Positions 3,261 to 62,333 of a stretch of 64,000 nucleotides of DNA are shown one piece after another (position 1 is the stretch's first letter; each line of letters begins with the position of its first letter). The stretch is from contig NC_134477.1 of the NCBI RefSeq assembly GCF_964194025.1, positions 55,614,001-55,678,000 on the forward strand. Reading direction: 5' to 3'. The notes below the pieces were generated by a model. That model saw only the letters and a list, made by a program, of their open reading frames with translations, did not search any database and was not told where the DNA came from. A program made the position numbers and the translations under genes. Source of the DNA: Convolutriloba macropyga (Eukaryota).

Positions 3261-3367
3261 CTCACATGGTAAATGCGTTGAATATGCTAACTTATATACT
3301 ACGCAAAAACAACGCAAAATATGTAAGATCTACGCTTTATAAGAATTGCGGCTCTTAAGGAAACCAA

Positions 3368-10659: not shown

Positions 10660-10717
10660 ACTTGAAGAACTTCAACGACTCATGATTTTTGTAGGGCTCT
10701 TTATATTACAAATTTAT

Positions 10718-33918: not shown

Positions 33919-33982
<64 letters not shown>

Positions 33983-38765: not shown

Positions 38766-39193
38766 TCAGGGTTATTTTTTGAAAAATTGTTGAGATTTTT
38801 ATACAATTTTGCATCCTTTTTGCTTTTCAAGCTAAATTTTGGCCAAATACTTGATTCTGATTGGTTGAAAATACCAGTTTAAAAAATCAAATGAGTTTAA
38901 ACAAGACAAAAACGCACACAGATTACACATTTGTCAAAAATACAATATAAAAACAAATAAATGTCATCAACATAGTACTTTACACTTTCGTCAGAGCGAA
39001 CAGTTTGCTATGTGGTGCAAGTTTTTAGCATTATAATGCAATAAAAAAATTCAAAATTACGCAAAAAAGATGTCAAACAGCATAAAATTTGCTAAATCGA
39101 ATCAAACTTTAAAAAAAATTTTACTGAAAATTAAATTTAAAAATTCACAATTTATCCTAGATGTTTTAAGATGAGCTTTAGCCGACATTAAAT

Positions 39194-39265
39194 AGCAAGA
39201 TGGCGCAGTGGTAGCGTGTTGGGCTCATAATCCCGAGGTCGGTAGATCGAAACTACCTCTTGCTA
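39194..39265 (+). tRNA. tRNA-iMet: Initiator tRNA-Met(CAT), anticodon stem mismatched
   Basis: AGCAAGA/TCTTGCT acceptor with A1:T72, CAT anticodon, GGTAG-ATCGAAA-CTACC T arm (initiator A54/A60). No adjacent T-run terminator. Confidence 0.9.
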
Positions 39266-40088
39266 ATCTGACATTGTCACAGTACTAGTGAACTCGTAAT
39301 CGCTCATAACTTGGAAAAATGTCAAATAATAGAAAAGCAAATGAACTAAAAAAGTTATAGCGTCTTTTTTTAGGATTTGGGTCCTTCCTAATGTATTAAG
39401 ATAGGGAATGAAATTGCAAGTATTAAGATTAGGTATAGCGGTCTTAATGTATCAAGATTATGTATAGGCTGCATGAATAAAGATTAGGAATAGAATCTCC
39501 ATGTAATAAGATTAGGTATAGCCTGCACCATGTATTAAGATTAGTTATAGTCGTCGACATGTATTAAGAATAGTTATAGCCTTCAACATGTATTAAGGTT
39601 AGTTATAGCCGTCGACATGTTTTAAGATTAAGTATAGAATCAGGGTTACTTTTTGAAAAATTTTTGAGATTTTTGTACAATTTAGCCTCCTTTTTGCTTT
39701 TCAAGTTAAGTTTTGATCACAAACTTGATTCTGATTTGTTGAAAATACCAGATTAAAAAATCAAATGAGTTGAAACAAGGCAAAGGCACACACAGGTTAC
39801 ACATTTAGCAAATATGCAAAAAAACAGTATAAAAACAATTAAAAGTGATCAACGAAAGAAAAGGTGACTAGTACTATAGAAGTTTTGTCAGAGTGAACAG
39901 TTTAATATGTCGTGCAAGTTTTTAGCATTAAAATACAATAAAAAGCTCAAAATTACGCAAAAGTGATGTCAAACAGCATAAAATCTGCTAAATCAAATCA
40001 AACTTTACAAAATTTTTACTGAAAACTAAATTCAAAATTTCACAATTTATCATAGATGTTTTAAGATGAGGTAGAGACAACATTAAAT

Positions 40089-40160
40089 AGCAAAATGGCG
40101 CCGTGGTAGCGTGATGGGGTCATAACCCAGAAGTTGGTAGATCGAAACTACCTCTTGCTA
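40089..40160 (+). tRNA. tRNA-iMet: Initiator tRNA-Met(CAT) copy, mutated (likely pseudogene)
   Basis: Same fold as 39194-39265, with an acceptor mismatch, A14>C in the A box and an altered anticodon arm. Confidence 0.85.
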
Positions 40161-41089
40161 ATATGACATTGTCACAGTACTAGTGAACTCGTAATCGCTC
40201 ATAACTTGGAAAAATGTCATATAATAGAAAAGCAAATGAAATAATTGAAAAATAACAGACACAGTATAAACTAAGCGCATTAAAATACATACTCAATCTA
40301 AGATTTACATTGAAAAATTATCAAGAAACTGAAAACTGAGGCACAATTACCCGAGTGGGTTAATAAAGTCGATAAAAAGAACAATTTGCGTAGATAACTG
40401 AGTAATAGTCACAATTCATTAGTCAGCATGATCCGTTTATTCTGTTTTCTGCACTAAATTAACATAGAAACAGGAGAACTACTACCCGCACTCAGAAAAC
40501 TAGTCTTAAAACGTGTTTAGTCGATTAGCTGGTCAGAATCTATGCTAAATATTTAGGAAAATGTTAATTTTATCAATTTAATGTATTTTGTGTCGTACAG
40601 CGCTCTTATCTATATGTTCTAAATGTACTAAGTTAAATACTTGATTCTGATTAGTTGTAACTACTGATCTTCATAAAATATATAAATTAAACCAGTACAA
40701 ATATAGAGAGCTTATAGTATGAGCAAAATTCAATGTAAAAACTACAGAATACAGATCAACAACTTATAAGTGCAATATAAATTTCGTCAGAGTGAACAGA
40801 TTGTTATTTGATGCAGATTTTCTCAATTATTATACAATGACAAAGCTCAAAATTACGCAAAACTGATATCGAATGGCATAAACTCTACTAAATTGAAGCA
40901 AACTTGAAAACTTTCAATTCTTTACTAAAACGAATAAAAAAGAAAAATTTTAATTTCACCCATCAAATTTAACCAATTTTGTTACAAATTAAAGACGATC
41001 GGAAAAAGACAGCTGAAAGACTAGTACACACAATTTCTTGTCAGCTAGTACAAAATGAGTTGATTCGAAACAAATTTTGTGAAGAAATG

Positions 41090-41630
41090 TGGCTCTCCAC
41101 GAGAATTTCTCAGGACAGGCAATGAAAGCAAAGGCTTTGCGCGCCCAGATCAATCATTCGTCTGCGTGATACAGCTGAGCTCGCAAAATCTAACAGAAGA
41201 AGTACAAAACTCATACAATAATCGTTGCGTATGGCATAAAATTTGTCTGTTCGAAGCATAAAATCTGTAAAAATTATAACTTGTTTTACAAAATCTCCCG
41301 GGAAAATCAAAAAACGATAGGTACTTGCCTACCAAATTCAACAAATTGTTCTTGAGACTAGACTGTCGACAAAAAGTTAGAGGAAAAGTGCTAAAACATT
41401 TCATGTCAATTAACAAGGTCTGGTAGTATTTTGGATACAGAGCAATGATAATTTTGTCTTCTTGCTACCGTGTTTAATCTGTTATATAGATAAGAAATTT
41501 CGGAGACAACTAAACTTTTATCAATTGATTACCAACGCAGAAACAAAAAACTAATGTCTGTTTTATAAAAGATTTTTAAGTAGAACGATTTTAGGTATCA
41601 AGAATGAACAATCTTCCAATTGATATTCTA
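41090..41630 (+). pseudogene. Decayed Polinton-type (retroviral-like) integrase
   Basis: Frameshifted pieces REFLR..GFAR/INH/CV/DTAELAKSNR, LSVRSIKSVKIITCFTK, VDKK and RMNNLPIDI recall the Polinton integrase pattern FAR.INEIW..DLA..LAK.N, WVDKG.EF, M.P.DV. Confidence 0.45.
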
Positions 41631-42299
41631 TTCTAGCTAAAAACAAGTAAAATTGATGAAAATTAGCTTTATTTTTGTTCAAGCTAGCCTAACAACAAAA
41701 TCATTGAAATGAAATGTACATACTTATTTCAAACTGTTAAGATAAACCAAGACAAAAATATTCCTACAATTGAGGATTTCGAATCAATTAAAATATCTTT
41801 AGCAGAATCCTAACATTTTTTCTTAGGTAATTTTTCTCTCCTTGACTGCTGCCAATAGTCTGATTCCAGCCAAATTTTAACATTAGTTTACAATAATAAT
41901 GTTAAAATTACTTGTTTTCAATGTTAGGCGGCAAAGGACGCTGAAAATTTACTAAATCAGTTAACAAAATAATTTAAGAATAAAATATAACAATAATTTT
42001 TTTTACAAATGCAACCAATCGACTATATGAAACTCATTTTCTTACAGAAATACTCACTAGCACTACTCAAAGCAGTTAACACCTAAATTTCGTAGTATAA
42101 AAAAATGTTATTGATAAATATATAATTAGATATCAATAAAAGTCAAGAACAACTATTGAAAACAATATTTTGCTAAAATTATAATGTCAACAGCAAAATC
42201 ACAATGTCAACAGCAAATCTTTTGTGTTAATTTATTGAGAAACTCAAATTGTCTCTGAAATGTCAAAAAAGCCTACCATAATCAGCGACTACTCATCCT

Positions 42300-42656
42300 C
42301 TAGAAAGATTGCAAGGATCGCCAATAGAGGGAAGCACTAATCACCCTATCTCTGTTTTTATCCAGTTCTTGTGATCCATATAGTTTAAAAGCCAACGTCT
42401 CCAATATCGAAAGATAGTCCCGGTCAAAATTCTCTGACTCATGAAATTTTGTAAGTTGTTCCATCTGTTTGTTTTCGTTTTCTTCCACTGATTCATTATT
42501 CTTCCTCGGAAGTTGCTGAGCAGGAAAGGAATAGGGAAAATTTTCCAACCGCATAGTTATATGCGTATTGTTCTTTGTTGTATAATTCTTAGAAAATTGA
42601 ATATTTACTCTTCTTCGTAAAGAATTCAGAATATACGAGAAAAGATAACGTCTCAC
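42300..42656 (-). CDS. Hypothetical element-borne protein (broken paralogs in each 1181-bp unit; inverted copy at 59857-60285)
   Basis: 118-aa ORF. The motif ETLAFKLY(G/R)SQEL recurs five times in the window. Confidence 0.4.
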   Translation of the reverse strand: MRRYLFSYILNSLRRRVNIQFSKNYTTKNNTHITMRLENFPYSFPAQQLPRKNNESVEENENKQMEQLTKFHESENFDRDYLSILETLAFKLYGSQELDKNRDRVISASLYWRSLQSF

Positions 42657-43199
42657 TGATGAAGAGTTTTATGGTTAATCTTGTTATATTTAGCAATCAA
42701 ATTTTGAACTTTCAGCATTTCAATGTGAGATTCAGCAAAAAAGTCATTCATTTCAAGATGAATTGATTAAAGCCTAAGAACAACGCTGAACAACTTAATC
42801 TTTAAGATGAGTTTAGTAAAATTGACTTAAACTGCGGAGCAACTCAATCTGAAAAAACAGGAAGTGTAATGATTTACGCTACCATGTAGTTTTGGGATCC
42901 TCGACGATGACTCATCACTTCCATATATGGAAATGACATCTTTTCTATTTTTAGAAACGAGCATCATGTTAGAACTTTCTAGAAGGCTGCAATTAACCAG
43001 ATTGCAACATTTCTTCATATAGTTAACTAATTTTTAGTTTAAAGGTAATACATTTAGTTATTTCATTCCGTGGCAAAAAATTCGAACTTTGCCTTTTTTT
43101 CTCATTTTCTTCTCACTCATATTTGTTGAACTGTACATGAATTTTCCTTTCCTACACAAATTATTTCACCAAAAAAAGCAACAGAAAATTTTGAATATA

Positions 43200-46100
43200 T
43201 GTAATCCAGTTTTGTGTATCTCAAGGATTGATAAGCTGCCAAGGATTGATTGATAAGCTGCCAAAAGTCTGACTCCAGCAAAAATTTAACATTAATTCAC
43301 GCTAATAATGCTTAATATCACTTGTTTTAAATGTTAGGCGGCAAAAGACGCTGAAAATTCACTAAATCAGTTAACAATATAATTTAAGAATAAAAAATAA
43401 CAAAAATTTTTTTTACAAATGCAACCAATCTGCTATATGAAACTCATTTTCTTGCAGAAATACTCACTAGCACTGCTCAAAGCAGTTAACACCTGAAATT
43501 CGTAGTATAAAAAAATGTTATTGAAAATTATATAATAAGATATCAATAAAAGTCAATTACAACTATTGAAAACAATATTTTGCTAAATTTAGAGTGTCAA
43601 CAGCAATATCACAAAGTCAACAGCAAATTTTTTGTGTTAATTTTTTGTAAATCTCAGTTTGTCTTTGAAATGTCAAAAAATCCTACCATAATCAGCGACT
43701 ACTCATCCTCTAGAAAGATTGCAAGGATCGCCAATAGAGGGAAGCACTAATCACCCTATCTGTGTTTTTATCCAGTTCTTGTGATCCATATAGTTTAAAA
43801 GCCAAGGTCTCGAATATCGAAAAATAGTCCCGGTTGAAATTTTCAGACGCATGAAAATTTGTAATTTGTTCCGTCTGTTTGATATCACTTTCTTCCACTG
43901 ATCAATTATCCTTCCTCGGAAGTTGCTGAGCAGGAAAGAAATAGAGAAAATTTTCCAAACCCATAGTTATATGCGTATTGTTCTTTGTTGTGTAATGCTT
44001 AGAAAATTGAATATTTACTCTTCTTTTTAAAAAATTGAGAATATACGAGAAAAGATGACTCACCACTTCAATATATGGAAATGACATCACTTCTATTTTT
44101 AGAAACGAGCATCATGTTAGAACTTTCTAGAAGGCTGCAATCAACCAGATTGCGACATTTCTTCATATAGTTAACTAATTTTTAGTTTAAATGTAATACA
44201 TTTAGTTAGTTTATTCCGTGGCAAAAAAATTCGAACTTTGCCTTTTTTGCTCATTTTCCTCTCACTCATATTTGTTAAACTGTACATGAATTTTCCTTTC
44301 CTACACGAATTATTTCACCAAAAAAGCAACAGAAAAATTTCTCTGTAAAAACTACTGATTCTTCTTGTATTTTGAATATAAGTATTCCGATTTTGTGTAT
44401 CTCAAGGATTGATAAGCTGCCAAGGATTGATTGATAAGCTGCCAAAAGTCTGACTCCAGCAAAAATTTAACATTAATTCACGCTAATAATGCTTAATATC
44501 ACTTGTTTTAAATGTCAGGCGGCAAAAGACGCTGAAAGTTCACTAAATCAGTTAACAATATAACTTAAGAATAAAAAATAACAAAAATTTTTCTTACAAA
44601 TGCAACCAATCTGCTATATGAAACTCATTTTCTTACAGAAATACTCACTAGCACTGCTCAAAGCAGTTAACACCTGAAATTCGTAGTATAAAAAAATGTT
44701 ATTGAAAATTACATAATAAGATATCAATAAAAGTCAATTACAACTATTGAAAACAATATTTTGCTAAATTTAGAGTGTCAACAGCAATATCACAAAGTCA
44801 ACAGCAAATTTTTTGTGTTAATTTTTTGTAAATCTCAGTTTGTCTTTGAAATGTCAAAAAATCCTACCATAATCAGCGACTACTCATCCTCTAGAAAGAT
44901 TGCAAGGATCGCCAATAGAGGGAAGCACTAATCACCCTATCTGTGTTTTTATCCAGTTCTTGTGATCCATATAGTTTAAAAGCCAAGGTCTCGAATATCG
45001 AAAAATAGTCCCGGTTGAAATTTTCAGACGCATGAAAATTTGTAATTTGTTCCGTCTGTTTGATATCACTTTCTTCCACTGATCAATTATCCTTCCTCGG
45101 AAGTTGCTGAGCAGGAAAGAAATAGAGAAAATTTTCCAAACCCATAGTTATATGCGTATTGTTCTTTGTTGTGTAATGCTTAGAAAATTGAATATTTACT
45201 CTTCTTTTTAAAAAATTGAGAATATACGAGAAAAGATGACTCACCACTTCAATATATGGAAATGACATCACTTCTATTTTTAGAAACGAGCATCATGTTA
45301 GAACTTTCTAGAAGGCTGCAATCAACCAGATTGCGACATTTCTTCATATAGTTAACTAATTTTTAGTTTAAATGTAATACATTTAGTTAGTTTATTCCGT
45401 GGCAAAAAAATTCGAACTTTGCCTTTTTTGCTCATTTTCCTCTCACTCATATTTGTTAAACTGTACATGAATTTTCCTTTCCTACACGAATTATTTCACC
45501 AAAAAAGCAACAGAAAAATTTCTCTGTAAAAACTACTGATTCTTCTTGTATTTTGAATATAAGTATTCCGATTTTGTGTATCTCAAGGATTGATAAGCTG
45601 CCAAGGATTGATTGATAAGCTGCCAAAAGTCTGACTCCAGCAAAAATTTAACATTAATTCACGCTAATAATGCTTAATATCACTTGTTTTAAATGTCAGG
45701 CGGCAAAAGACGCTGAAAGTTCACTAAATCAGTTAACAATATAATTTAAGAATAAAAAATAACAAAAATTTTTCTTACAAATGCAACCAATCTGCTATAT
45801 GAAACTCATTTTCTTACAGAAATACTCACTAGCACTGCTCAAAGCAGTTAACACCTGAAATTCGTAGTATAAAAAAATGTTATTGAAAATTACATAATAA
45901 GATATCAATAAAAGTCAATTACAACTATTGAAAACAATATTTTGCTAAATTTAGAGTGTCAACAGCAATATCACAAAGTCAACAGCAAATTTTTTGTGTT
46001 AATTTTTTGTAAATCTCAGTTTGTCTTTGAAATGTCAAAAAAACTACCATAATCAGCGACTACTAATCCTCTAGAAAGATTGCAAGGATCGCCAATAGAG

Positions 46101-46780
46101 GGAAGCACTAATCACCCTATCTGTGTTTTTATCCAGTTCTTGTGATCTATATAGCTTAAAAGCCAAGGTCTCAAATATCGAAAGATAGTCCCGGTTGAAA
46201 TTTTCAGACGCATGAAAATTTGTAATTTGTTCCGTCTGTTTGTTATCACTTTCTTTCACTGATCAATTATCCTTTCTCTGAAGTTGCTGAGCAGTTAAGA
46301 AATAGAGAAAATTTTCCAAACCCATATTTTTATGCGTATCGTTCTTTGTTGTGTAATGCTTAGAAAAATGAATTTTTACTCTTCTTTTAAAAAAATTGAG
46401 AATATACGAGAAAATATGACTCATCACTTCCATGTATGGAAATGACATCATTTCTATTTTTAGAAAGGAGCATCATGTTAGAACATTCTAGAAGGCTGAA
46501 ATTAACCAGATTGCGACATTTCTTCAAATAGTTAACTAATTTTTAGTTTATATATAGTACCTTTAGTTAGTTCATTCCGTGGAAAAAAATCGAACTTTGC
46601 CTTTTTTTCTCATTTTCCTCTCACTCATATTTGTTAAACTGTACTTGAATTTTCCTTTCCTACACAGATTATTTCAACCAAAAAAAACAACAGAATTTTT
46701 TTTTCAAAAATTACCAATTGTTCTAGTATTTTGAATAGATGTAATCCAAACTTGTGTATCTCGAGGATTGATAAGCTTTA
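43200..46780 (+). repeat. Three tandem ~1181-bp units, plus a diverged partial unit at 41845-43200
   Basis: aaggattgataagctgcc anchor at ~43223, 44404 and 45585, with a partial match at 46763. Confidence 0.97.
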
Positions 46781-47055
46781 CTGTCTGAGATCAAATATAT
46801 TTTTATTGAAAATAGAAAAAATCGCATAAATGTGGTTTTAAAACAACCACAGAGAGATCAAGAAAAAGTTTCCATCTATTATTGAAGAACAATTTTACGT
46901 TGTACAACTTAACGTTGTTGTAATAGAACCTCCCATCCAGTTAGACTTCAGTTTTTGAATCTAATTCTCAAGATAAACGAAATCATTTTATGCATTGCTT
47001 TCTCTATTTTGATTTTTTTTAATATCAACAGGGTTTTACTTGATACTTTATTCAT

Positions 47056-47720
47056 TTGTCAAAAATGTTGATCAAGAATCACGTACAACTTTTGGAAAAA
47101 ATATACAAAAGGAAGGACGGAATCCCTGATGCTTACAGAGTAGACGAAATTGATGTTGATTCTTACTTCTTTTACAATTTTTTGGACGTTTTTCTCAAAC
47201 AACAGAATCATCCGATTTTAAAGGATTTGAATATGCGACCTTCTCCATCGAAGAATTCGAGTATGATTACGAGTATGATTCGAGTATTCGAGTATGATTC
47301 GAGTATGATTATGACTACATAACAAAACAATCTTTCGTTTTATCGTCAGAACTACACATCAACAAGTATGAAATGCTTTTAATATTGAATTTTGTCCCAG
47401 AAATTATGCAACAATACAGAAATCTGTCTCAGTCTAATTTTATACCAACTCCCCAACCAGTAACCAGTAGTTCATCTCTGCAGAGGGCTCTGTTCTTTCA
47501 TTATTACAAGGACTACAATGAAGAGGGGGAGAGAGTACGATTTGGAATACGACTCCCCAACATTTATATATAAAAATTTAGTTGCAAATTTGGAACATTT
47601 TGCGAGTTAGATTTGAGATTTAACAAGATGAAGAGAATTTATCAAAGCTTGACTGTTTTGGTCAATTACGTCAACTCATTTCCTCTAACTTATCCATCTT
47701 TGGCTGTTAATTAGGATAAC
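47056..47720 (+). pseudogene. Frameshifted hypothetical ORF; inverted paralog at 59090-59660
   Basis: EIDVDSYFFYNFLDVFL and YEMLLILNFVPEIMQQYRNLS..RVRFGIRLPNIYI are shared between the arms. Confidence 0.5.
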
Positions 47721-48052
47721 ACGTGAAAAAGCTGCCTTTTTAGTCCATTATTCAGTATTGAGCTTACCTGTTTCGTTTAGTATTGTTAGATTTTCTATGA
47801 GTTGATTCCTTCTTTGGTAACTTCAGAACTGATGCATTTCTTTTTCTGGATAAAAACGTCACTTTTTCTGCTAAAAATTACCCTTTTTGCAAACTTTGTT
47901 CTCATTGGTTGCAGTTTAGTATAAATAGAGCTGAAAAACTCAACCAACATCACTTGTTTTCTCTTCTCTTCAAACAACATTACCTCTGTCTCAACTACCT
48001 TTGACTCTAATCCTTCTTCTCATCTCAACACATTGAGAAGTGGAATTTACAG

Positions 48053-48227
48053 ATGCAGAACAACACCCTTCTCTACTCAGTTCCTTTCACAGAGGGGACT
48101 GCTCGGATAAGCATCAGAGACTTGTCGAATGGGCTCTACGGGTCTGTTGTAACCATGCCTTTTACAGTGTGGCACATTAATGAGCACCAGCGACAACAGT
48201 TTGACACATATCATCAAGGACAGGTTC
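48053..48227 (+). CDS. N-terminal 58 aa of a 239-aa ORF interrupted by the nested Gypsy
   Basis: Joins in frame to 55594-56138 once the element and one TSD copy are removed. The empty-site paralog reads QGQVPITE at 58547-58570 (minus). Confidence 0.75.
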
Positions 48228-49954
48228 TGTCGTACTCTATTTAAATAGAGTTGCTACTCGCGATGCGGGTGCCTTTACTATTGCTTAAATTGCGATTAGC
48301 AGAGCAAAATCTTCACTTGAGTATTTTGTGCTTACTCGAGGAGCGGAATTACAAAAAGAATTGTTCAACTAGCATTGAATTGCGAAAGAAACTTGAAGAA
48401 TGAACTGAAGTGCTTATATGCAAATCCAGTATTTAAGGGCATCATATAAAAATGTACTGCATCAAATTAATAACAAAGGATGATATCCTTAGGTATCACA
48501 TGCCCCTTGGATCGACAAACAAAATAGTGACAATAACAATCTTCGTATGTATAAAATAATAACAATTTTTCCAAATTAATACTTAGTTCCCGGTTAAATA
48601 AATAGTAACAATATATGTACTGGTTATCAAAACTAGAAAATAGATGCTGTTAAACTAGAAAGTTCGTGAATAAATCATTTTGAATTAGAGTTCAGTTTCT
48701 ATTCTTGTCACTCATCCATATCTTGACCTTCAGCTTCAAATTGTCATGGAGTATACCAGCGTCGGGGTATCGATATCCAAAAGTGATGATGACGCGGTCG
48801 GGTTACGAAACTTCTCCTATTCTTGGGGAGATGTTGATTTCCGCCGGCTGCTGGTCTGCAATGTGTTGCACCGTTTCAACAACTGACTAAAATGGGGCAG
48901 GTAATTCTCAATGTCACCCGCTCTGCGTGTACGTTTGGGAGGTGCTGCGATCGTCGAATCGGGTGATGAATCTTCGAAACCGTAATAGGAGGGGCTGCGA
49001 CGATTTCTGTCCGACGATGTTTGTGGCTGTTTAGCGGCTGTCGAATGGGCTCTACGGGTCTGTTGTAACCATGCCTTTTACAGTGTGGCACATTAATGAG
49101 CACCAGCGACAACAGTTTGACACATATCATCAAGGACAGGTTCTGTCGTACTCTATTTAAATAGAGTTGCTACTCGCGATGCGGGTGCCTTTACTATTGC
49201 TTAAATTGCGATTAGCAGAGCAAAATCTTCACTTGAGTATTTTGTGCTTACTCGAGGAGCGGAATTACAAAAAGAATTGTTCAACTAGCATTGAATTGCG
49301 AAAGAAACTTGAAGAATGAACTGAAGTGCTTATATGCAAATCCAGTATTTAAGGGCATCATATAAAAATGTACTGCATCAAATTAATAACAAAGGATGAT
49401 ATCCTTAGGTATCACATGCCCCTTGGATCGACAAACAAAATAGTGACAATAACAATCTTCGTATGTATAAAATAATAACAATTTTTCCAAATTAATACTT
49501 AGTTCCCGGTTAAATAAATAGTAACAATATATGTACTGGTTATCAAAACTAGAAAATAGATGCTGTTAAACTAGAAAGTTCGTGAATAAATCATTTTGAA
49601 TTAGAGTTCAGTTTCTATTCTTGTCACTCATCCATATCTTGACCTTCAGCTTCAAATTGTCATGGAGTATACCAGCGTCGGGGTATCGATATCCAAAAGT
49701 GATGATGACGCGGTCGGGTTACTAAACTTCTCCTATTCTTGGGGAGATGTTGATTTCCGCCGGCTGCTGGTCTGCAATGTGTTGCACCGTTTCAACAACT
49801 GACTAAAATGGGGCAGGTAATTCTCAATGTCACCCGCTCTGCGTGTACGTTTGGGAGGTGCTGCGATCGTCGAATCGGGTGATGAATCTTCGAAACCGCA
49901 ATAGGAGGGGCTGCGACGATTTCTGTCCGACGATGTTTGTGGCTGTTTAGCGGC
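48123..49954 (+). repeat. 916-bp tandem duplication spanning flank, 3' LTR and internal 3' sequence
   Basis: tgtcgaatgggctc at 48123 and 49039. The two copies are nearly identical. Confidence 0.95.
48228..48500 (-). repeat. 3' LTR (273 bp; duplicated at 49144-49416)
   Basis: tgtcgtactc...gtatcaca. Confidence 0.95.
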
Positions 49955-50290
49955 AGTTGTAGCTGCAGAAAAGTTGTTGGTTGTTCGCTATGCGAAACAG
50001 TGCTCTCTTCTTGCTGCTGATTGCGAATAGCAAGAAAGTTGTGGATTTTTGGAATCCGCCCTCGCATCGCGTGTGAAATGTTAGACTTTAAAGAGGAGAC
50101 CCCGCTTCCCGGATCATATTTGCGGTGCGTCATCTTCTTGTCACCTTTTTGCTTCCCGGTAAACTCTTTAATATGGCTTTGGATTAATTCCTCCACAAAT
50201 TTACCCAGATCGTGGTCCTCTACGGTCCGCGTATGTTTTTAATGGAGTTCGCCGCTCCAGTTGTGTCCCGAAATTAGCTATGTCGCTATT

Positions 50291-53200
50291 TCAGACTATC
50301 ACCACGGGTTTTCCAGGCTCTTTAAATGTTGATGTTGTCGGGCTAAATTTGAGGATGTGAGAGCCAGGAGCAAGCACCTCGTATAATCCCTCTAAGTTCT
50401 TCTTAGAGCGCCGCTTGTCGTGATTTTTCCTTGCCAAATTCAACTCAACCGCTCGCTTCTTCAGAGGAATTGGTGGAGTGGCCTTCGTGTGTAAGAAGCG
50501 AGATTCACCATCCGTGCTTGCCCTCTCTCTGTTTTTGGCTTCTTGCGACGCGCGTGTCATTCCGATCTTGACTTCGATGTCGCTGCGGTAACCATTCACC
50601 CACATGTCATCGGGGAGTATATTTTCTGGCGTCACTGTGTCTTCAGCTAAATAGTGGTTTACAATGCTTTCATATGTGAGATTAGACAATTTAGGCTTTG
50701 TTGATATCACGCTCAGTGGCGTATTAGGTTTTCTTCCAAAGTTTGCTTCAAAGGGCGAGATCTTTGTTGTTTTCTGCTTAAATATTCGCAATTGGTGTAT
50801 TATTATCTTTAATGCATGCTTTACATGAAACGCGTTAGTAGACGATTTTTCCTCTTTGATAAATGCAAGTCTATTTTTTTATCGTTCGAATGAGTCTTTC
50901 TACCAATCCAATAACGCGATGATCGTTTACTGAAGCTTCAATTATATCAATCTTGTTTTTGTTACAGAAGGTCTTTACTTGATTGCCAACCAAACATTTA
51001 GCCTGATGCAATCGAATAGATCGTGGAATTCCGTGATTTTCAATATACATGTCCAAAAATTTTAGAACATTGGTTCCGTTTGCTTTGTTATAAATACAAG
51101 CAGTAGGGTATTAAGAAAAACGATCAATAGCAGCTAAGAAGTAAATTACATTACCTTTTTCATCAAAAAATGGATCTCCAAAATCGATTTGGATTTCTTG
51201 AATTGGTTCAACACACGGTATTTGGGGATGAAATTGCTCAGCGGGAATAACAGATTTAAGGTTCTTACCAATCAGAGCTTGCACTCTGTAGCTTTTACAA
51301 TAAGCTCACGATGCGTGTATGGCCACCAGCAATGCGTGGCCATGCATATCATACCCCATGTGCCCGGATGGCTGGAGTGAATGTCGTCAGTTAATGCCTC
51401 TCGCAGGACATTTGGTATAGCGACTTTTTTCATCTGTGCACACACAGCCAGAGCGCACATGGAGATCTCTCCAATAAGAATGAGTGCACGGGTTTAGAAC
51501 TTTAAGACAACTTCCTCTTTTAACACTGCGTCTTTGCTTGTTAAAGACGCAATGATAGACTGATTAAAGATCTTTGACACAATGTAGTCGAAGGTTGGTA
51601 CATGTGGGCTGGGCGTAAGAGGGGTACTGACATTAGAACAGGGAGCCGGAGATGTCGGTGTTGTTATTTGTAGGGGACCGTGATGCGCTTTTTAGAAGGC
51701 ATATTGTTACTTTTCTTGCTTATATAGTTTATTTCTGAGGAAGATTTAGATGATAATGAGTTTTTTGAGTTGGAAGTGAATGACTGATTCGTAAGCTAAT
51801 TGTTTGTAAGATTATTCGAGGAATATCTCCTAATTGGCGGGATTTTAGATTGAGTAATTTGAGTCTCGCGCGGCGCGAGAGCCAATTCATTCCGATTTTG
51901 GAATATTTGTTTACACTTATTTGTATTTCGCCTAGCGAGAGAAATGTTAAGTGGTAATTGCGATGCGGGATCTACATTTTTTAAATTTTTAAATTACACT
52001 TAATTTTTGAGGCTAGCTTTAACGGAGCGGGGGAATGGTAATAACCATGCTTGTGTACTCGTACAGCATGTACGCTAATTAAGTTTATCACCCTATTGTT
52101 GGCTTCAATTTTAGGTGTGATTTTCGATGCGGGATTGTGTGCTTTTAATAATTGGTGTAAATGAGGTGCAGGTTTTGCATTGTTCAATTCCAATGAAATA
52201 ATAGATGCAGAAATTAACTTTAGTTTGGCTACTATAAATTCCTCGTCATACGCAGAGACTGTTCTTAAGCTTTTTGATACAGGTGTCTAGAAATGTAGTC
52301 AACTAAACCCATTTTTGCACATGGTAGATGTTCAATATCAAATTGAAATGGGAGTAAACGATCGAACCAGCGAGTTAATCTACTTTTGTATGATTTATTC
52401 GATCTATTTTCTTCCATGATAGACAGAAGAGCTCGATGAACCGTAATAACTGTAAAACTTTTTTTCCGTGAAGATAATTTTTAAAATATTCAATAGACCC
52501 TCCGAGGAATTCAGGTTCATTTACGCTATAGCGCTCTTTGCAAGGATTTAAAAAAACGAAACGTGAATGCAATTGTCTTCCACCCATCAACTGTCAGCTG
52601 TTCAAATGCCACTCCGAGATCAAAACGGGACGCATCACAATTTACGCGTGTTTCGAGTTGCGGGTTATAATGACTATTTGCAGTTGCGTTCATGATGCGA
52701 TTCTTTATTTCATTAATGCAATTTTGGTGTTCCTCCGTCCAGATAAACTTTGTTGTCTTTTTCAGTAAAGGACGGAGGGGATGACTAAATTGAGCAAGGC
52801 TTGGAATAAATGTACCAATGTAATGAACCGACCCCAGAAAAGAACGGAGTTTCTTTAGCGTTTTCGGAGCATCAAGGTCTAAAATCGCAGATGTTTTACC
52901 CTCGAGGGGCGAGATATCCGATTGGGAAAAATGACACTCTAGTCAATCGATTTCTAAATTTCCAAGGTGACATTTAGGTTTATCCTAAGGTTTTCATCAT
53001 CTAATCGTTTAAAGCAGTTCGTGACATAGCATTTATGTTTTTTCAGAGACCCCTTGCTTACAATCAAAATGTCGTCTAAAAAACAAAAGGTATTCTTTAA
53101 ACCAATTAAGGTATATTCCATTGCTTTTTGAAATTCTGCTGGCATATCTGTTAGCTCGTAAGTACCGGTCATATCACCACTAATTATGTTAAAGTTACAA

Positions 53201-54169
53201 TGATTTGCCGTGTTAGTATCAAAATTTAATTGGCTGTATGCGTACTTCAAATCTAGCGTAGAAAAATATGTTGTGTTTTGCGACGCGGGACATGACTATG
53301 TTGTGTTTTGCCGAGAAATGAATTCGATAAGATGTCAATTTTTGGCATCTGATATTTGTTCTTGTGAATGGTTCTATTTAATATTTTTGAAACGAGTGTA
53401 AGCTTTATCGTTTGATCTTTCTTTACGGTGACCACTATTGGTGATATGAAATATTTATCAGGACAACTTGAAATTTTTATTATATGTTTTGCGTCTAACA
53501 ATTTCTTAATCACGTTATTGACTTTTTCTTGTAAGTTAATTGGAATACGTCTACCTTTTTGATGTCTAGATTGAATTTTTTGTGAAACTGAGATTTTTCC
53601 ACATGATTTTTAGGTCTTCCGATGCGAGATATCAGTTCTGGAAAAGTTTTTGCGATTTGTTCTTTAAATTCTGGCGATGAAAAAATGTTGTTGTTGCGAT
53701 TACTTTTATGAGATGTAGATTGTGTCACTGCTAATCCGAGTTGATCAAACAAGTCACGGCCAATTAGAGATTTTTGTCCATCAGCTACAACAGTGAATGT
53801 TGCTGAAACACAAGTCCATCCGTTGCTTGTGATTGGAGATTGTATCTTTCTTTCGACCTGGATTGGTTCTTTCGTGAAAGTCCGAAGTTGCGGGGACGTC
53901 TTTTCGCTGATCCAGAAGGCGCGAGGACTACTTTGCGAAACTTGTGATTCTAGTGAACGATTAAGAATACTAAATGCGCTACCGGTGTCCACGAGCAGTG
54001 TATTATTAATATTACCGGTCTTGATGAGCATGTTGAGGGGTTCTACTTTCTCTACTGCATTCTCGATCATCGCAACCGTGTTATCCTCCCCGATACTATA
54101 GTCCCATTCATAGAGCTTAGCTGGTTGTAGGAAATTCACTGAATCCTCGGGATGCGGTTCTTCTTCCAC
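50291..54169 (-). pseudogene. pol: Gypsy pol (PR, RT, RNase H, INT), fragmented
   Basis: LLVDTGS, FISPIVVTVKKDQTIKL, MPAEFQKAM..FCFLDDILI, ERYSVNE, IHSSHPG..CWWP, HGIPRSIRL, GLVERLIRTIK, SPFEANFGRKP. Confidence 0.95.
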
Positions 54170-54179
54170 AATGTTTACC

Positions 54180-55199
54180 GTCTTTTTCTGAGAGTTTTGT
54201 GGCTTTGCATTCTTTTGTTTTCTGCAAACTTTCGCAAAATGAATTAAAAGTCAGCAATTGTTGCAGGTTTTACCTTTTGCGATACATTTATCACGATGAT
54301 TTGGAAGCCAAATTCCTACTCAGTTGGAACAACAGGGTGTGAAGCGGTTGTTTTGTCTTGGAAATTTATTCGGGTTTTGCCAATTCGGGTTTCGAGAGCT
54401 GTTAGGGAACTGGACTGCGTTGAAACTAGCCAGGATGACAATCTTGTTATGCTGCTCAATTTGATGTTGATTGTGCATCCCAAGTTCCAAGTCAATTGCT
54501 AGCTCTAATGCCTGACGTGGATAAACTGTTTGTTTGAGTAGTTCCTTTTGAATATCAGGGTCTATTAGGTTAGTAATGAAGACATCGCGTATCAAAGTCT
54601 CTTCTTTTTTTTCGAAATCGTCAATTCCTTTAGCTTACCGTTGAAGTGTTTTACTGTTTCTCCCCGGAGTCGTTTCGTATTTAGGAAAACATGACTGCCA
54701 AAAATTTTGTTGCGAGGACAGATGATTGCCTCTTCCTCGATCCTCCAGAATCTATGGTGGTAAGGGTATCAATCATGATATGCGGGTTTTTGCAGTTGAG
54801 AATGCAACGTTCTTCCACCCCAATGCTTACATAGAGTAGAGACACGGTTTTGCGATTCGCAAGTGGCCACAATTTGTCGCCACACATTATGCCGACTTCA
54901 ATTAGACGTTGGCATTTGTTTTGCCAATTCATCTCTTGTTGCGCATGGGGAGCTTTCCTTTCTCTCTCCGATTGTGCAGAAGAGCCAACTATAGTTTCCT
55001 CGTATACTGGTTCAAGTGGAAGGTCCACCATCTCGGGTTTGGGTCCAAGTAACGTATCGAGAATGATATTCTCTTTTGCCGATAGTGCCAATTTATATTG
55101 CACTCTCCATTTCTCCTGGCAAAGAGGAGGGTCGGGTGTAGGTTTATCCCAGGAAGCGTCTATTCCGAGAGGTGTACGCTTAGCTGCTGACTGCGCCAT
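54180..55199 (-). pseudogene. gag: Gag with CCHC zinc knuckle, frameshifted
   Basis: MAQSAAKRTPLG..., IRDVFITNLIDPDIQKELL, CIAKGKTCNNC*LLIHFAKVC. Confidence 0.9.
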
Positions 55200-55588
55200 G
55201 TCGTACTCTATATAAATATAGTAGCTACTCGCGATGCGGGTGCGTTTACTATTGCTTAAATTGTGATTCGCGGAGCGAAATCCTGACTTGAGTATCTTGT
55301 GCTTACTCGCGGAGCGAGATTACAAAGAGAATTGTTCAACTAGTATTGAATTGCGAAACTTGAAGAATGAACTGAAGTGCTTATAAACGAATCTAGTACG
55401 CGTGATCAGACATGTTTGATCACGAAGCACCAAACCAAGAAAGGAAGTATTGAACTGATCATAAGATACGAAGTGAACAAATATGAATTAAATGATGAAG
55501 GGCAAATAAATTGAACTAATTTAAGGGCATCTTATAAAAGAGTACTGCATCAAATAAAAAACAAAGGATGATATCCTTGGGTGTCACA
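55199..55588 (-). repeat. 5' LTR (390 bp)
   Basis: About 90% similar to the 3' LTR by eye, with ~117 extra internal bp. Confidence 0.95.
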
Positions 55589-55593
55589 GGTTA

Positions 55594-56138
55594 CAATCAC
55601 GGAGAATCAGCTGGGAACTCACACAATGGGTCACAAAGTTGCTGTGATCAGTGGGCATCACTATCTTCACGTTAATGGAACAGATTTTCCCGACAACTAC
55701 GTTGCTGGAAGCATTCAGTACACATTTTTATGGGAGGAAGGGCAGATTCCCGAAAACTGGTTCAATACACCCGAGACAAGTCAAGTATTCAGTCCAGAAT
55801 CACAAAACAAACTTCTCCAGATAGTGAGCAATGCAGGCAGCAGTGAACAAAGCGAATTGAGTGTAGATACTAGCACCACGTGCTCATTTAACGATCAGGA
55901 AAACTTCGATCCAGATCAGTATTATGATTCGACTAATATTTCAACTACTTCATCAATGACAACTCCCTCCATAGAGGATGGAACAGCTCATAATCCAATT
56001 GTGCTGACTGATGAAGCTCCGATAACTCCCATCAGTGTTCGACCTACAGAACCGCTAGCAATCGTTGAAAGAGTCCGATCATTTGTCAATGAAATTCAAA
56101 ACTTGCCAGATTATGTTGTGAGAACTCTCTTTGAGTAA
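55594..56138 (+). CDS. C-terminal part of the interrupted 239-aa ORF (acidic, S/T/P-rich tail)
   Basis: Open frame of 180 codons in AT-rich DNA, in frame with 48053. Confidence 0.7.
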
Positions 56139-56429
56139 ATTTGATATTGTAAATTTTATTATTGAATTCTTTTAAAGTACTTTGTGATGTATTTACAGTT
56201 TTGTTTGAATTGATAAGTTGAACTATTTCCTTACTCCAAATACTATGCAGGCTATGTTCAAACAAAACACAGCAACGTTTGTCAAATTTTTATAAACAGT
56301 TTTCGATAAATTCTGCTTCTTAACAAAAAAAGTCGATTTAAAAATTTATTTTTAAGAAAAAAACTGAAATATTTTTTCGATTTTTATTAAAAAAACCTTG
56401 TTTTGAAAACTGATATTTATTAAAAATAA

Positions 56430-58506
56430 AAAGTTCGCAAGTTTTCATTTAAAATGTATTGAAAATTTCTTCTTTTTGCTTAAAATCATATCGTATAATG
56501 AAGAAAAATAAATATTTTTGGGTTTTTGAATAACATATTTTAAATTTTTTCGATATTTAAGAAAATTTTTTATGAAAAAAATTTGATATTTAAGAGAAAT
56601 CGTTGAAAACCTTTACGATTTTAAAGGGAAAACTTTGAATAGATTTTTGATTTTTAACAAAAAAGTTGTCTCAATTTTCCATTTTAAATGAGCCACTTTT
56701 TTGTAAAATTGATTTTTAACAATAAGTCAAAATAAGACAATAGATCAAAATATAAAAACAGATACAAATAAAAAAACTCAAACAAGAAATTAAATACGCT
56801 ATTTTCGAATTTCAAGATACAAATAAAGATTATCAAATATGCCATGACCATCTAACAAACAATCAACAACCTTTATAAATTCACTCTCATACTTTGAGTT
56901 TCTAAGGGAATGGATTCTATCTAAAAACGATGATCCAAGGGTTTGAGTACTCGCATTTCTTTGTTCAGCGCGTAGTATGTAACGCTTGATCTTCTTCCTA
57001 CTCAATCGTTTTTTGGAGATTGTGGGTACTTTTTCCGTGTACTTATTCTCCAAGTTGCACTCCACCGCTCTGGTTAACTGGGTAAAGACCAGTCCTGACT
57101 CTTATATAATGGAAGCAAACAACTGATATTTAAAGAGTGTGTACAAGCAATTGACTGTTTGACAAAAATAAGACAAATTTTCTATTTTTTCTAGTATCTC
57201 CTTCACTGAGGATGAAATGAGAATAATGTAGTAGCGACAAGTCTTTATTGGACAAAAATTGTCGTTATGAGTAGCAACGGAGTATTTTTTAGTGCGCAGA
57301 TAAAGTTTTTACCCCTTAACTGATACAGAAATGAATAATGTGTTGTCGTTATATTTTCTGTAAAATGGAGTTAAAATCTGATACATTATTGCTGACACAA
57401 TATCGGGATAACAGAATAAAACAAATATATGGAAACAAAAAATACGGTAACGTAACTTTCTATTTTTAGAGGTAATAATTTCTGTTTCGATAAAAATAGA
57501 AAATTACGTTACCGTACTTTTTGTTTCCATATATAGTTTCTATTCTGTTGTCCCAATATAGAAATGGCAGAAATAATGTGTCAGGTTTTACCTCAATTTT
57601 ACAGAGATTATAACGACAAAACATTATTCAGTTCTCTATCAGTTAAGGAGTATAAACCTTATTTAATCGTTAAAAAATACTCCGTTGCAACTCATAACGA
57701 GAATTTTTGTCCACTAAATACTTATCGCTAACACATTATTCTCATTTCATCCTCAGTGAAAGAGATACTAGAAAAATTAGAAAATTTTTCTTATATTTAT
57801 CAAACAGTCGATTGCTTGTACACACTCTATAAATATCAGTTCTTTGCTTCCATTATAGAAGAGTCAGGACTGGTCTTTACCCAGTTAACCAGAGCGGTGG
57901 AGCACAATTTGGAGAATAAATACGTGGAAAAAAAACCAGTATCTCCAAAACCGATTGAGGAGGAAGAAGTTCAAGCGTCACCTACTACGCGCTAAACAAA
58001 GAAATGGGAGAAATCAAACCCTTGTATAATTGTTTCTAGATAAAAATCATTCCCTTAGAGAATCAAAGTATGAGAGTGAGTTTATAAGGATTGTTGATTG
58101 TTTGTTAGATGGTCATGGCAAAATTGATAATCCTCTTTTGTATCTTGATATCAGAAAATAACGTATTTAAATTCTTGTTTGTATTTTTTTTTTGTATTTG
58201 TTTTCATATTTTGAAGTAACATATTGATAAAAATCAATTTTACAAAAAAGTTTTTTTCTTAAAAATCGAAAATTGAAACAACTTTTTTTGTTAAATTTGG
58301 AAAAAATTTTCAAAGTTTTCTCTTAAAAGTCGAAAATTTTTTCAAAGTTTTCTATTAAATATCAAATTTTCAGTCAAAACTTTATTTAAATGTCGAGAAA
58401 ATGTTCAAAATGTGTCATTCAAAAACGTAAAAATATTCATTTTACGGTATGATTTTGTGCAAAAAAAGAAGTTTTGTTTACATTTTCAAATGACAACGTT
58501 TGAACT
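56430..58506. repeat. Central ~2.1-kb inverted repeat with a 22-bp spacer (57469-57490)
   Basis: tacggtaacgtaactttctattttta / taaaaatagaaaattacgttaccgta. Mirrored ORFs at 56799-57065(-) and 57756-57995(+). Confidence 0.95.
56799..57225 (-). pseudogene. Hypothetical ~140-aa gene with one stop; mirror copy at 57735-58161 is frameshifted
   Basis: VKEILEK.EN.SY..QTV.CLYTL.KYQ.FASII.ESGLVFTQLTRAVE.NLENKY is shared by both copies. Confidence 0.5.
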
Positions 58507-61500
58507 ACATTTGAAAATGCCACACTAATAGGCATGGTTACAACAGACTCCGTGATTGGAACCTGTCCCTGCTGATATGTGTCAAATTGTTGTCGCTGGT
58601 GCTCAATAATGTGCCACACTGTAATAGGCATGGTTACAACAGACTAGTAGAGCCCATTCGACAAGTCTCTGATGCTTATCTGAGCAGTCTCCTCTGTGAA
58701 AGAAACTGAGTAGAGAAGGCTGTTGTTCTGCACTGTAAATTCCATTTCTCAATCTGTTGAGATGAGAAGAAGGATTAGAGTCAAAGGTAGTTGAGACAGA
58801 GGTAATGTTGTTTTAAGAGAAGAGAAAGCAAGTGATGTTGGTTGAATTTTTCAGCTCAATTTATTCTAAACTGCAACCAATGAGAACAAAGTTTCCAAAA
58901 AGGGCAATTTTTAGCAGAAAAAGTGATGTTATTATCCAGAAAAGGAAATGCATCAGTTCTGAATTTACCAAAAAAGGAATCAACTCATAGAAAATCTAAC
59001 AATACTATACGAAACAGGTAAGCTCAATACTGAATAGTGGACCAAAAAAGGTAACTTTTTTACGTGTTATCCTAATTAACAGCCAAAGATGGATAAGTTG
59101 GGAGAAATGAGTTGACGTAATTGACCAAAAAAGTCAGGCTTTGATAATTTCTCTCCATGTGGTTAAATCCCAAATTTTTCATCAAAAATTTTTCAAAATT
59201 CGCTCTAAATTATTGTATATAAATGTTTGGGAGTCGTATTCCAAATCGTACTCTCTCCCACTCTGCATTGTAGTCCTGGTGATATAGAACGAACAGCGCA
59301 CTCTGCAGAGATGAAGAAATTGTTACTGGTTGGGGAGTTGGTAAAAAATTAGACTCAGACAGATTTCTGTACTGTTGCATAATTTCTGGGACAAAATTCA
59401 ATATCAAAAGCATTTCATACTTGTTGATGTGTAGTTCTGACAATAAAACGAAAGATTGTTTTGTTATGTAGTCATCATACTCGAATTTTTCGATGGAGAA
59501 GGTTGCATATTCAAATCCTTTACTAATTCGGATGATTCTGTTGTTTGAGAAAAACGTCCAAGAAATTGTAAAAGAAGTAAGAATCAACATCAATTTCGTC
59601 TACTCTGTAAGCATCAGTGATTCCCTCCTTTCTTTTGTATATTTTTTCCAAAAGTTTTAAGTGATAAGAAATGATGTCATTTCCATAAATGAAAGTTATG
59701 AGTCATCGACGAGCACCCCAAAACTACATAGGAGCTTAAATCATTACACTTTCTGTTTTTTCATATTGAGTTGCTCCGCAATTTACGTGAAATTTACTCA
59801 ACTTAAAGATTAAGTTGTTCCGCATTGTTTTTAGGCTTTAATCAATTTATCTTGAAATGAATAACTTTTTTGTTAACTCTCACATTGAAATGCTAAAAGT
59901 TCAAAATTTGATTGCTAAATATGACATGATTAACCAAAAACTCTTGATTAGTGAGACTTTATCTTGTCTCGTATATATTCTCAATTCTTCACGAAGAAGA
60001 GTAAAGATTCATTTTTCTAATCATTATACAACAATGAACAATACGCATACAACTATGAGTTGGAAAAATGTTCCCAATTCCTTTCCTGCTCAGCAACTTC
60101 CGAGGAAGGATAATGGATCAGTGCAAGAAAGTGATAACAAACAGACAGAACAACTTACAAAATTTCATGAGTCTGAGAATTTCGACCGGGATTGTCTTTC
60201 GATATTGGAGACGTTGGCTTTTAAACTATATGGATCACAAGAATTGGTTAAAAACACAGATAGGGTGATTAGTGCTTCCCTCTAATCGCGATCCTTGCAA
60301 TCTTTCTAGAGGATGAGTAGTCGCTGATTATGGTAGGCTTTTTTGACATTTCAGAGACAAACTGAGTTTCTCAATACATTAAAACAAAATATTTGCCGTT
60401 GACTTTGTGATTTTGCTGTTGACTTTCTAAACTTAGAAGAAATATTGTTTTCAAAAGTTGTACTTGATTTTTTTGATATCTAATTATTATATTTTTTCAG
60501 TAACAATTTTTTATACTACGAAATTTAGGTGATAACTGCTTTGAGCAGTGCTAGTGAGTATTTCTGTAAGAGAATGAGTTTCATATAGTAGATTGGTTGC
60601 ATTTGTAAAAACAATTTTTGTTATTTTTCTTTTCCTAAATTATATTGTTAACTGATTTAGTAAATTTTCAGCGTCTTTTGCCGCCTAACATTTAAAACAA
60701 GTGATATTAAGCATTATTAGTGTGAATTAATGTTAAATTTTTGCTGGAGTCAGACTTTTGGCAGCTTATCAATCAATTCTTGGCAGCTTATCAATCCTTG
60801 AGATACACAAAAATGGGTTAGATATATTCAAAATACTAGAACAATCGGTATTTTTTACAGAGAAAATTTTCTGTTGCTTTTTTGGTGAAATAATTTGTGT
60901 AGGAAAGGAAAATTCATGTACAGTTTAACAAATATGAGTGAGAGGAAAATGAGAAAAAGAGGCAAAGTTCGAATTTTTTGCCACGGAATGAACTAACTAA
61001 ATGTTTTAGCACTTTTCCTCTAACTTTTTGTCGACAGTCTAGTCTCAAGAACAATTTGTTGAATTTGGTAGGCAAGTACCTATCGTTTTTTGATTTTCCC
61101 GGGAGATTTTGTAAAACAAGTTATAATTTTTACAGATTTTATGCTTCGAACAGACAAATTTTATGCCATACGCAACGATTATTGTATGAGTTTTGTACTT
61201 CTTCTGTTAGGTTTTGCGAGCTCAGCTGTATCACGCAGACGAATGATTGAACTGGGCGCGCAAAGTCGTTTGCTTTCATTGCCTGTCCTGAGAAATTCTC
61301 GTGGAGAGCCACATTTCTTCGCAAAATTTGTTTCGAAGCAACTCATTTTGTACTAGCTGACAAGAAATTGTGTGTACTAGTCTTTCAGCTATCTTTTTTT
61401 AATCGTCTTTAATTTTTAACAAAATTGGTTAAATTTGATGGGTGAAAATAAAATTTTTCATTTTTTATTCGTTTTAGTAAAGAATTAAAATTTTTCAAGT

Positions 61501-62261
61501 TTGCTTCAATTTAGTAGAGTTTATGCCATTTGATATCAATTTTGCGTAATTTTGAGCTTTGTCATTGTATAATATTTGGAAAATCTGCATCAAATAACAA
61601 ACTGTTCACTCTGACGATATTTATATTGCACTTGTAAGTTGTTGATCAGTATTCTGTAGTTTTTATATTGTATTTTGCTCATTTTTTAAGCTCTCTATAT
61701 TTGTACTGGTTTATTTAATTTATTTAATGAAGGTCAGCATTTTCAACCAATCAGAATCAAGTAATTAACTTAGTCTAGAACATATAGAAAAGAGCGCTCT
61801 ACGCCACAAAATACATTAACTTGCTAAAATTAACATTTTCCTAAATAATTAGCATAGATTCTAACCAGCTAATCGACTAAGCACGTTTTATGACTAGCTT
61901 TTTTAGTGCGGGTAGTAGTTTTCCTGTTTCGATGTAAATTTAGTGCAAAAAACAGAATAAACAGAACATGCTGACTAATGAAGTCGATATTATTTTTTTA
62001 ACAATTGTGACTCTTACTCAGTTAGCTACGCAAGTTTATCATTTTATCGACTTTATTAACGCACTCGGTTAATTGTGCCTCAGTTTTAAGTTTCTTGATA
62101 CTTTTTCAATGTAAATCTTAGATTGAGTATGTATTTTATTGTGCTTAGTTTATACTGTGTCTATTATTTTTTAATTTTTAGTTCATTTGCTTTTCTATTA
62201 TTTGACATTTTTCCAAGTTATGAGCGATTACGAGTTCACTAGTACTGTGACAATGTCATAT

Positions 62262-62333
62262 TAGCAAGAGGTAGTTTCGATCTACCAACTTCTGGGTTAT
62301 GACCCCATCACGCTACCACGGCGCCATTTTGCT
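62262..62333 (-). tRNA. tRNA-iMet: Initiator tRNA-Met(CAT) copy in the right arm, identical to 40089-40160
   Basis: Exact reverse complement of copy 2. Confidence 0.85.

Follow-up and report, generated by a model that had tools for sequence, protein, structure and literature searches.

Initiator tRNA genes in Polinton/Maverick elements of Convolutriloba macropyga, and three decayed copies in a palindromic derivative

Introduction

Why a mobile DNA element should carry initiator tRNA genes, and what such genes may do for it, is the question raised by a 64,000-nt stretch of the genome of Convolutriloba macropyga (GCF_964194025.1, NC_134477.1:55,614,001-55,678,000), here called the window, in whose coordinates positions are given below. 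The initial annotation had placed three initiator tRNA genes (tRNA-iMet, or iMet) at 39194 (+), 40089 (+) and 62262 (-), and Rfam RF00005 matches fall exactly at these sites. The element that holds them is a non-autonomous, polymerase-less, palindromic derivative of a Polinton/Maverick, and all three tRNAs are decayed remnants inside this defective element. Full-length Polintons of the same genome carry one terminator-bearing iMet gene each, beside a terminal inverted repeat (TIR); its cloverleaf is conserved, and copies decay once inserted. Comparison of the lineages indicates that the gene of the full-length elements is a selected initiator tRNA gene, preserved in its cloverleaf and provided with a terminator. 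The carriage of the tRNA is more than a local oddity, though the three copies in the window are fossils.

The explanation that seems, on balance, the probable one is that the Polintons of this genome carry a host-derived iMet gene that is kept base-paired from lineage to lineage and is likely transcribed by Pol III (RNA polymerase III) to add initiator tRNA during replication, the window holding three decayed copies in a defective derivative.

Polinton/Maverick identity of the elements

A search of the 1.18-Gb genome for the tRNA with its flank gave 675 candidates, the best 40 of which were scored. The family is Polinton/Maverick. One family copy contains a window-type arm and the open reading frames (ORFs) o1-o3 together with genes for an A32 ATPase and for an rve integrase (Pox_A32, PF04665, E 2.1e-5; rve, PF00665, E 1.1e-11; both above the Pfam cut-offs). 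Full-length elements, traced via the ATPase, measure 19.0-19.5 kb and encode a polymerase, an integrase, the ATPase, a capsid protein and a putative protease. The polymerase, of the protein-primed family B kind, is an ORF of about 1450 aa with the family-B motifs A, B and C, which matches PF03175-positive proteins in tblastn (E about 1e-19); a direct Pfam DNA_pol_B_2 match is absent for this ORF. The top PF03175 matches themselves were set aside, as they belong to another Polinton family, without the tRNA and with no coding homology to the window element. The full-length elements are predicted to encode a double jelly-roll major capsid protein, the model of which (m2d9d0c006605, pLDDT 73) matches the capsids of PBCV-1, iridovirus, Sputnik and mavirus (best E 3.7e-15). 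The adenain-type protease has a weak Peptidase_C5 match (E 0.007, below the cut-off), and a further ORF, with no library match, is taken by us to be the minor capsid protein from its gene position and resemblance. Neither Pfam nor PHROGs yielded informative matches to o1-o4, to the capsid proteins or to a putative exonuclease, and IMG/VR gave no close relative of the element.

The lineages are designated A, A', B, C and D, with C and D forming a clade distant from the others. AGTAGT ends with target-site duplications of 6 bp (TSDs) are perfect in 13 of 15 A/B-clade elements (one of the others has 5/6 and one has none) and in 7/7 D elements. The TIRs span about 830-990 bp in five of the eight elements measured, the top alignments in the other three being of 322-518 bp. 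Animal Polintons/Mavericks/adintoviruses, as described in PMC8097293 and PMC8502044, share these traits, namely (AGT)2//(ACT)2 ends and a 6-bp TSD (both given for Mavericks in PMC8097293, which describes Polintons as probably viral), TIRs, polymerase, integrase, ATPase, protease (putative in the present elements) and major capsid protein. The present elements differ from them in having an initiator tRNA as a conserved accessory gene, and in the frequent occurrence of palindromic derivatives that lack the polymerase.

Polintons abound in the genome, with 3892 first-look family B polymerase candidates that, among the best 91 scored, include several families. Some elements are chimeric (L398-L407, L400-401, L216/L086/L087), their two termini coming from different clades and agreeing over no more than the first ~8 bp; in 3/3 checked the 6-bp TSDs are nonetheless perfect. 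The same capsid module is also found paired with two very different polymerases (about 25% identical).

The iMet gene in full-length elements

Full-length elements have one iMet gene each, just inside one TIR. This is so in six of six polymerase-bearing copies that were picked by their ATPase match and had the protease end fetched; the end of a seventh polymerase-bearing copy lies outside this count, and one polymerase-less pick has no iMet at that end. In lineage B the gene follows the protease gene and faces outward, with T5 at +7, and in lineage A' it lies at the same end and faces inward, with T4 at +28 and a G73. In the C/D clade, where the capsid is 29-39% and the integrase ~48% identical, the gene block has the tRNA on its other side, facing outward; the anticodon stem of lineage C is short by 1 nt through a fixed deletion, with T4 at +8, and lineage D has C73 and a T run at +4, with T4 within 40 nt in 29/30 copies.

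Among A-flank copies, T4 occurs within 40 nt in 3/30, all three in full-length A'-type elements, and iMet on both arms is found only in polymerase-less derivatives, in both clades. The missing terminator is thus a derived loss in the subfamily of the window, and the two-arm placement a secondary trait of defective elements. The proposal of the initial annotation that the tRNA is cargo of the TIR survives insofar as it is cargo of a mobile DNA element, but full-length copies have a single gene inside one TIR and not inside both.

Outside this genome, a Polinton contig of another sample (L242, JAAUXY010163060.1) carries iMet after the protease gene, with C73, and its tRNA flanks have no match to this genome. 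Low-score ARAGORN calls of Ser, Gly and Leu tRNAs appeared in C-clade elements and in outside loci.

Conservation and selection

Types A, A', B and D keep all 21 pairs and show the initiator features A1:U72, a CAT anticodon, an anticodon stem with three G:C pairs, and A54/A60 in the T-loop; A1:U72 and the three G:C pairs are given as initiator features in the text of PMC11231383. CAT and all 21 pairs are retained in 17/30 A-flank and 23/30 B-flank copies. Nucleotide diversity, taken from flank-selected copies with one arm per element (22/30 A, 29/30 B), is 0.065 in the tRNA of A copies versus 0.11-0.25 in flank blocks, and 0.029 versus 0.033-0.119 in B copies. Private changes per site are similar in tRNA and flank (0.29 versus 0.33), and therefore inserted copies decay neutrally. 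Between lineages the picture is another one: A' and B differ at 61/141 four-fold capsid sites and their homologous non-coding flank is 78% identical, and their tRNAs differ at 7/72 sites with no pair broken. The check proposed at the outset, whether the tRNA is better conserved than its flanks, is thus answered positively between lineages and negatively for inserted copies.

Across clades the tRNA is 87-92% identical with unalignable flanks. The C/D-clade elements retain iMet at another position despite their diverged capsid and integrase, only the tRNA being alignable, and several lineages as well as L242 keep the cloverleaf while position, orientation and flanks vary. Relative to the host gene, each lineage type carries 4-7 changes, and these leave the pairs unbroken. 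The 14 distinct lineage-level changes from the host gene comprise nine unpaired, five pairing-preserving and no pair-breaking ones, versus 13/35 pair-breaking among private changes (p=0.0098; 20 A and 27 B copies, partner arms and indel-bearing copies dropped). Pairs 5:68 and 29:41 are altered on both sides, in a covariation test whose shuffles kin sequences can beat without structure. In a shared-versus-private test, shared changes are depleted in the A tRNA when all subfamilies are included (p=0.0005-0.002), and the same test in B is not significant (p 0.4-0.6).

Several observations weigh against a maintained initiator gene. The depletion in A is lost without two A' copies, L151 and L164 (p about 0.2), and including the broken lineage C, whose anticodon-stem deletion is fixed, brings the comparison of pair-breaking changes to p=0.02 overall and 0.056 within stems. 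Lineage ends recombine with one another, and exchange or recapture may therefore account for some of the low divergence of the tRNA. Position 20 is variable, and L242 has A29:U41 in place of the first G:C pair. At the discriminator position A and B have A73, A' has G73, and both D and L242 have C73; the G73 and C73 forms thereby lose a base, A73, that PMC9976931 lists for Met identity in eukaryotes. The gene is also dispensable in relatives: the initial annotation had expected other family members to carry it, and 6/6 full-length copies do, but iMet stands at the exonuclease-side end in 1/13 C-clade elements followed that far and in 0/7 regions of another (third) polymerase family. At the other end of C-clade elements it was found in none of 18 further stretches, though one more element had iMet there. 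Finally, 1/81 Polinton-like loci outside this genome has iMet, this number resting on metagenome loci picked by a related capsid gene, most of them short.

The defective element of the window

The window element extends from about 38110 to 63127 and is flanked by copies of the hexamer CAGTGA; its right terminus is AGTAGT, and its left terminus is truncated (Table 1). Once a gypsy insertion and tandem ~1.2-kb units are set aside, the element forms a palindrome with its centre near 57469. It aligns with the tRNA-bearing end and o1-o3 of a full-length element, and genes for its own polymerase, integrase and capsid were looked for in it with o1-o3 and weak polymerase remnants as the only outcome; these remnants match family polymerase residues 53-151 and 291-323 (tblastn, E 0.002-0.014).

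Table 1. Features of the window element (window coordinates)
Feature	Coordinates	Strand	Remarks
Left 6-bp TSD, CAGTGA	38104-38109	+	Same hexamer at 63128-63133; first ~25 bp of left terminus gone
Outer, older left arm	38110-39351	+	G-run, 29-bp subterminal array 38213-38763, spacer, tRNA copy 1
tRNA-iMet copy 1 (type A)	39194-39265	+	Rfam RF00005, 51.7 bits
Inner left arm	39352-41401	+	94.8% identity to right arm overall; first ~900 bp 96-100%
tRNA-iMet copy 2	40089-40160	+	Rfam RF00005, 42.2 bits
About four tandem ~1.2-kb units	41848-46777	.	Weak remnants of Polinton polymerase N-terminus (tblastn)
Polinton accessory ORFs, degenerate (o1, beginning of o2)	47062-48227	+	66-81% aa identity to family copy
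Decayed gypsy-type long terminal repeat (LTR) retrotransposon	48228-55588	-	Inserted in o2; reverse transcriptase (RT) and RNase H matches
Mirrored core	55589-59675	.	Remaining o2, o3, palindrome centre near 57469, then o3/o2/o1 reversed
Right arm	60999-63127	-	29-bp array 62785-63002; AGTAGT terminus at 63127
tRNA-iMet copy 3	62262-62333	-	Rfam RF00005, 42.2 bits; sequence identical to copy 2
Right 6-bp TSD, CAGTGA	63128-63133	+

All three tRNAs face inward, at 431, 452 and 452 bp from the 29-bp arrays for copies 1, 2 and 3, respectively, in agreement with the ~450 bp and inward direction first noted for them. They show the hallmarks of initiators (A1:U72, CAT anticodon, GGG/CCC anticodon stem, A54/A60 T-loop), and ARAGORN detects copy 1 alone among them, with an ambiguous anticodon. 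The lack of a nearby oligo-T terminator, also noted initially, is borne out by the first T4 at +99, +284 and +309 nt, respectively. The cloverleaf of each copy has one or two broken pairs: in copy 1 pair 28:42 is broken and 31:39 is G:U, and in copies 2 and 3 pairs 6:67 and 27:43 are broken, with A14C in addition. Judging by this damage, copies 1 and 2 are probable pseudogenes.

The three tRNAs are not independent, because copy 3 has the same sequence as copy 2, the arms around these two being 96-100% identical across ~900 bp, and copy 1 lies in a duplicated outer arm, older and about 83-88% identical to the right arm. The near-identity of the inner left arm and the right arm suggests recent copying of one end onto the other; it spans 39352-40244 versus 62178-63070, other arm parts being ~89% identical. 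The same palindromic design recurs in six fetched regions with inverted tRNA pairs, some arms reaching 9 kb. In such defective forms the tRNA-bearing end may have replaced the polymerase end, one half then folding back, which would leave the gene on both arms. Palindromic forms of this kind resemble the copy-back defective genomes of linear DNA viruses.

Other origins were rejected. A short interspersed element (SINE) is at odds with the fixed position of the tRNA within a larger element and with the lack of a visible poly-A tail; integration into a host tRNA gene, with a gene that lies inside a TSD-bounded element and differs from the host gene; and a cut-and-paste foldback transposon, with internal genes that map to Polinton and the lack of a transposase match.

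Together with other giant foldback derivatives of a Polinton in the genome (L031-L050), the window element belongs to a set of near-perfect palindromes of 15-20 kb with subterminal arrays of 26-29-bp repeats up to 160 copies long; one of them lies within a second one and is split by a 13-kb satellite. Contigs from four runs of one study (library type unrecorded) cover the left arm, most deeply at the repeats and the first tRNA; this depth is no measure of copy number, and the contigs are no independent support.

Function and alternative explanations

If the gene serves as an initiator tRNA, the element tRNA would be transcribed by Pol III and charged with methionine, and the benefit would be extra eIF2 ternary complex, or a reserve for times when the host shuts off translation or tRNA is depleted. 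An initiator tRNA cannot offset codon bias, so that extra ternary complex or a buffer against shut-off would be its likeliest use. Codon compensation, the usual explanation for viral tRNAs, being inapplicable to an initiator, retention of the gene points to pressure on translation initiation and supports a real viral phase of animal Polintons.

The loss of the Met identity base in the G73 and C73 forms keeps alive another interpretation, which we consider unlikely, in which the transcribed RNA is a tRNA-shaped decoy or a source of fragments and not a charged initiator. It would absorb anticodon nucleases, tune GCN2 as an uncharged mimic, or provide 3' fragments that meet retrotransposon primer sites. 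Two lineages of this genome and L242 have indeed altered the discriminator while keeping the fold, the anticodon and, in this genome, the terminator, and G57A is recurrent (B, D, L242); type A and lineage B, a numerous one, however, retain A73 and A1:U72 as well as the loop with A54/A60 and all three G:C pairs. A bolder and rather doubtful proposal combines both roles: animal Polintons would have captured the host iMet multiple times and retained it to counter host defence at the step of eIF2, and in some lineages it would have been retuned (G73/C73) into a tRNA-shaped regulator. If true, a plain tRNA gene and adenovirus virus-associated (VA) RNA would be linked by a living intermediate, and Polintons would supply most iMet genes in this genome.

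It is improbable that the gene acts at the level of DNA, its A and B boxes recruiting TFIIIC beside the TIR to block the spread of heterochromatin or to open a terminal origin or promoters, with the RNA incidental. Its location, always within about 0.6-2.3 kb of a terminus whichever way it faces and whichever end it occupies, and its presence on both arms of polymerase-less derivatives in two clades would suit such a role. Yet the pairing of the acceptor and anticodon stems and the CAT, outside the boxes, are kept, with two pairs changed on both sides, and a purely DNA-level form of the TFIIIC chromatin barrier put forward in the initial annotation is disfavoured because of this stem pairing. 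The chances are slimmer still that the tRNA is a neutral passenger, acquired from the host on one or a few occasions and passed on as ends recombined, its low divergence reflecting recent capture. The patchy distribution, the broken lineage C, the chimeric ends and the decay of inserted copies at the flank rate fit this account; the pair-preserving departure of each lineage type from the host gene, the identity of the tRNA across clades with unalignable flanks and the iMet of a Polinton from another sample speak against it.

Least credible of all, and in our view highly improbable, is that the tRNA is the Pol III promoter of a longer, structured, VA-like RNA, another of the roles first suggested for it. 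VA RNAs are hypothesised in PMC6599070 to derive from tRNA genes, and 27/30 A-flank copies have no T4 within 40 nt. Full-length lineages, however, have terminators within 4-28 nt, the folding of the ~300-nt trailer is not superior to that of shuffled sequences (z -0.61 and -0.24), and no VA family match was found in the window at the Rfam gathering threshold. This idea is further undercut because the two-arm copies and the loss of the terminator are secondary to defective elements.

Host genes and genomic counts

The host-type iMet gene is identical at loci that have unrelated flanks and T runs close by, and occurs in 18 exact copies, plus two arrays of mostly degenerate copies. Element-type tRNA 3' ends number 301 (T68 types) and 67 (D), about 368 in all, a figure that is not like for like with the 18 since the patterns are of 24-25 versus 72 nt and a few T68 matches may be host-array variants; flank motifs were counted 48 (A/A') and 102 (B) times. 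Several hundred element-borne copies thus exceed the few exact host-type genes, and iMet gene counts for this genome are inflated, as the initial annotation had anticipated. The element-specific bases A5:U68, U33, C25, A57 and G/C73 make expression directly distinguishable in tRNA sequencing.

The host arrays (L071, C7:7423001-7433000; L072, C13:12516001-12526000) are built of ~300-700-bp units with near-intact and degenerate copies, head-to-head and head-to-tail. A ~1.7-kb tandem unit elsewhere (L059-L070, C3:55361780-55365195) has a match to the initiator T-loop/acceptor motif with a T run after it, and has no alignment to the iMet query.

Relation to known systems

[quoted passage not shown] In contrast to the present case, these are explained by codon compensation or integration-site capture, and the passages on them neither name an initiator identity nor give a selection test. 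What appears to be new here is an initiator tRNA in animal Polintons, on which our literature search, with most subscription papers and Repbase reports outside its reach, found no paper; tRNA tables in supplements may bear on this novelty. The word 'tRNA' is absent from the main text of PMC8097293, PMC10748475 and PMC11131425, which deal with animal Polintons; in the text of PMC8502044 it occurs once, in a legend on MELD viruses with non-PolB replicases.

Eukaryote-type initiator motifs also occur on viral contigs, as 16 IMG/VR contigs, six of them labelled GVMAG (giant-virus MAGs), fit the motif. These differ in lacking Polinton hallmark genes (one weak accessory match, L384), and several have the tRNA in multi-tRNA clusters. 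Some of these contigs (L372-L387) have U1:A72 or other first pairs. Adenovirus VA RNA, as presented in PMC6599070, likewise comes from a linear dsDNA virus, in which a small gene with A and B boxes specifies this non-coding RNA, acts on translation initiation (through PKR) and has a proposed tRNA origin; it is a longer, non-cloverleaf PKR inhibitor, whereas the element gene keeps the full initiator cloverleaf, with a terminator right after it. The Cassandra and Ajax miniature terminal-repeat retrotransposons (TRIMs), described in PMC10946416, are also mobile elements that have a Pol III gene in their ends and inflate apparent gene number, but they are retrotransposons with 5S promoter sequence in their LTRs and not DNA virus-like elements with a tRNA.

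Other features of the window

Outside the element, a small foldback-like element at 2188-3681 has inverted 32-33-bp arrays flanking a 144-148-bp tandem repeat, and about four tandem copies of a ~2-kb unit, without a long ORF, occupy 10627-18295. A second decayed gypsy-like retrotransposon region lies at 29992-36090 (+), where two scanned ORFs have no Pfam match and an RT-like fragment is recognisable by eye at 31857-32267.

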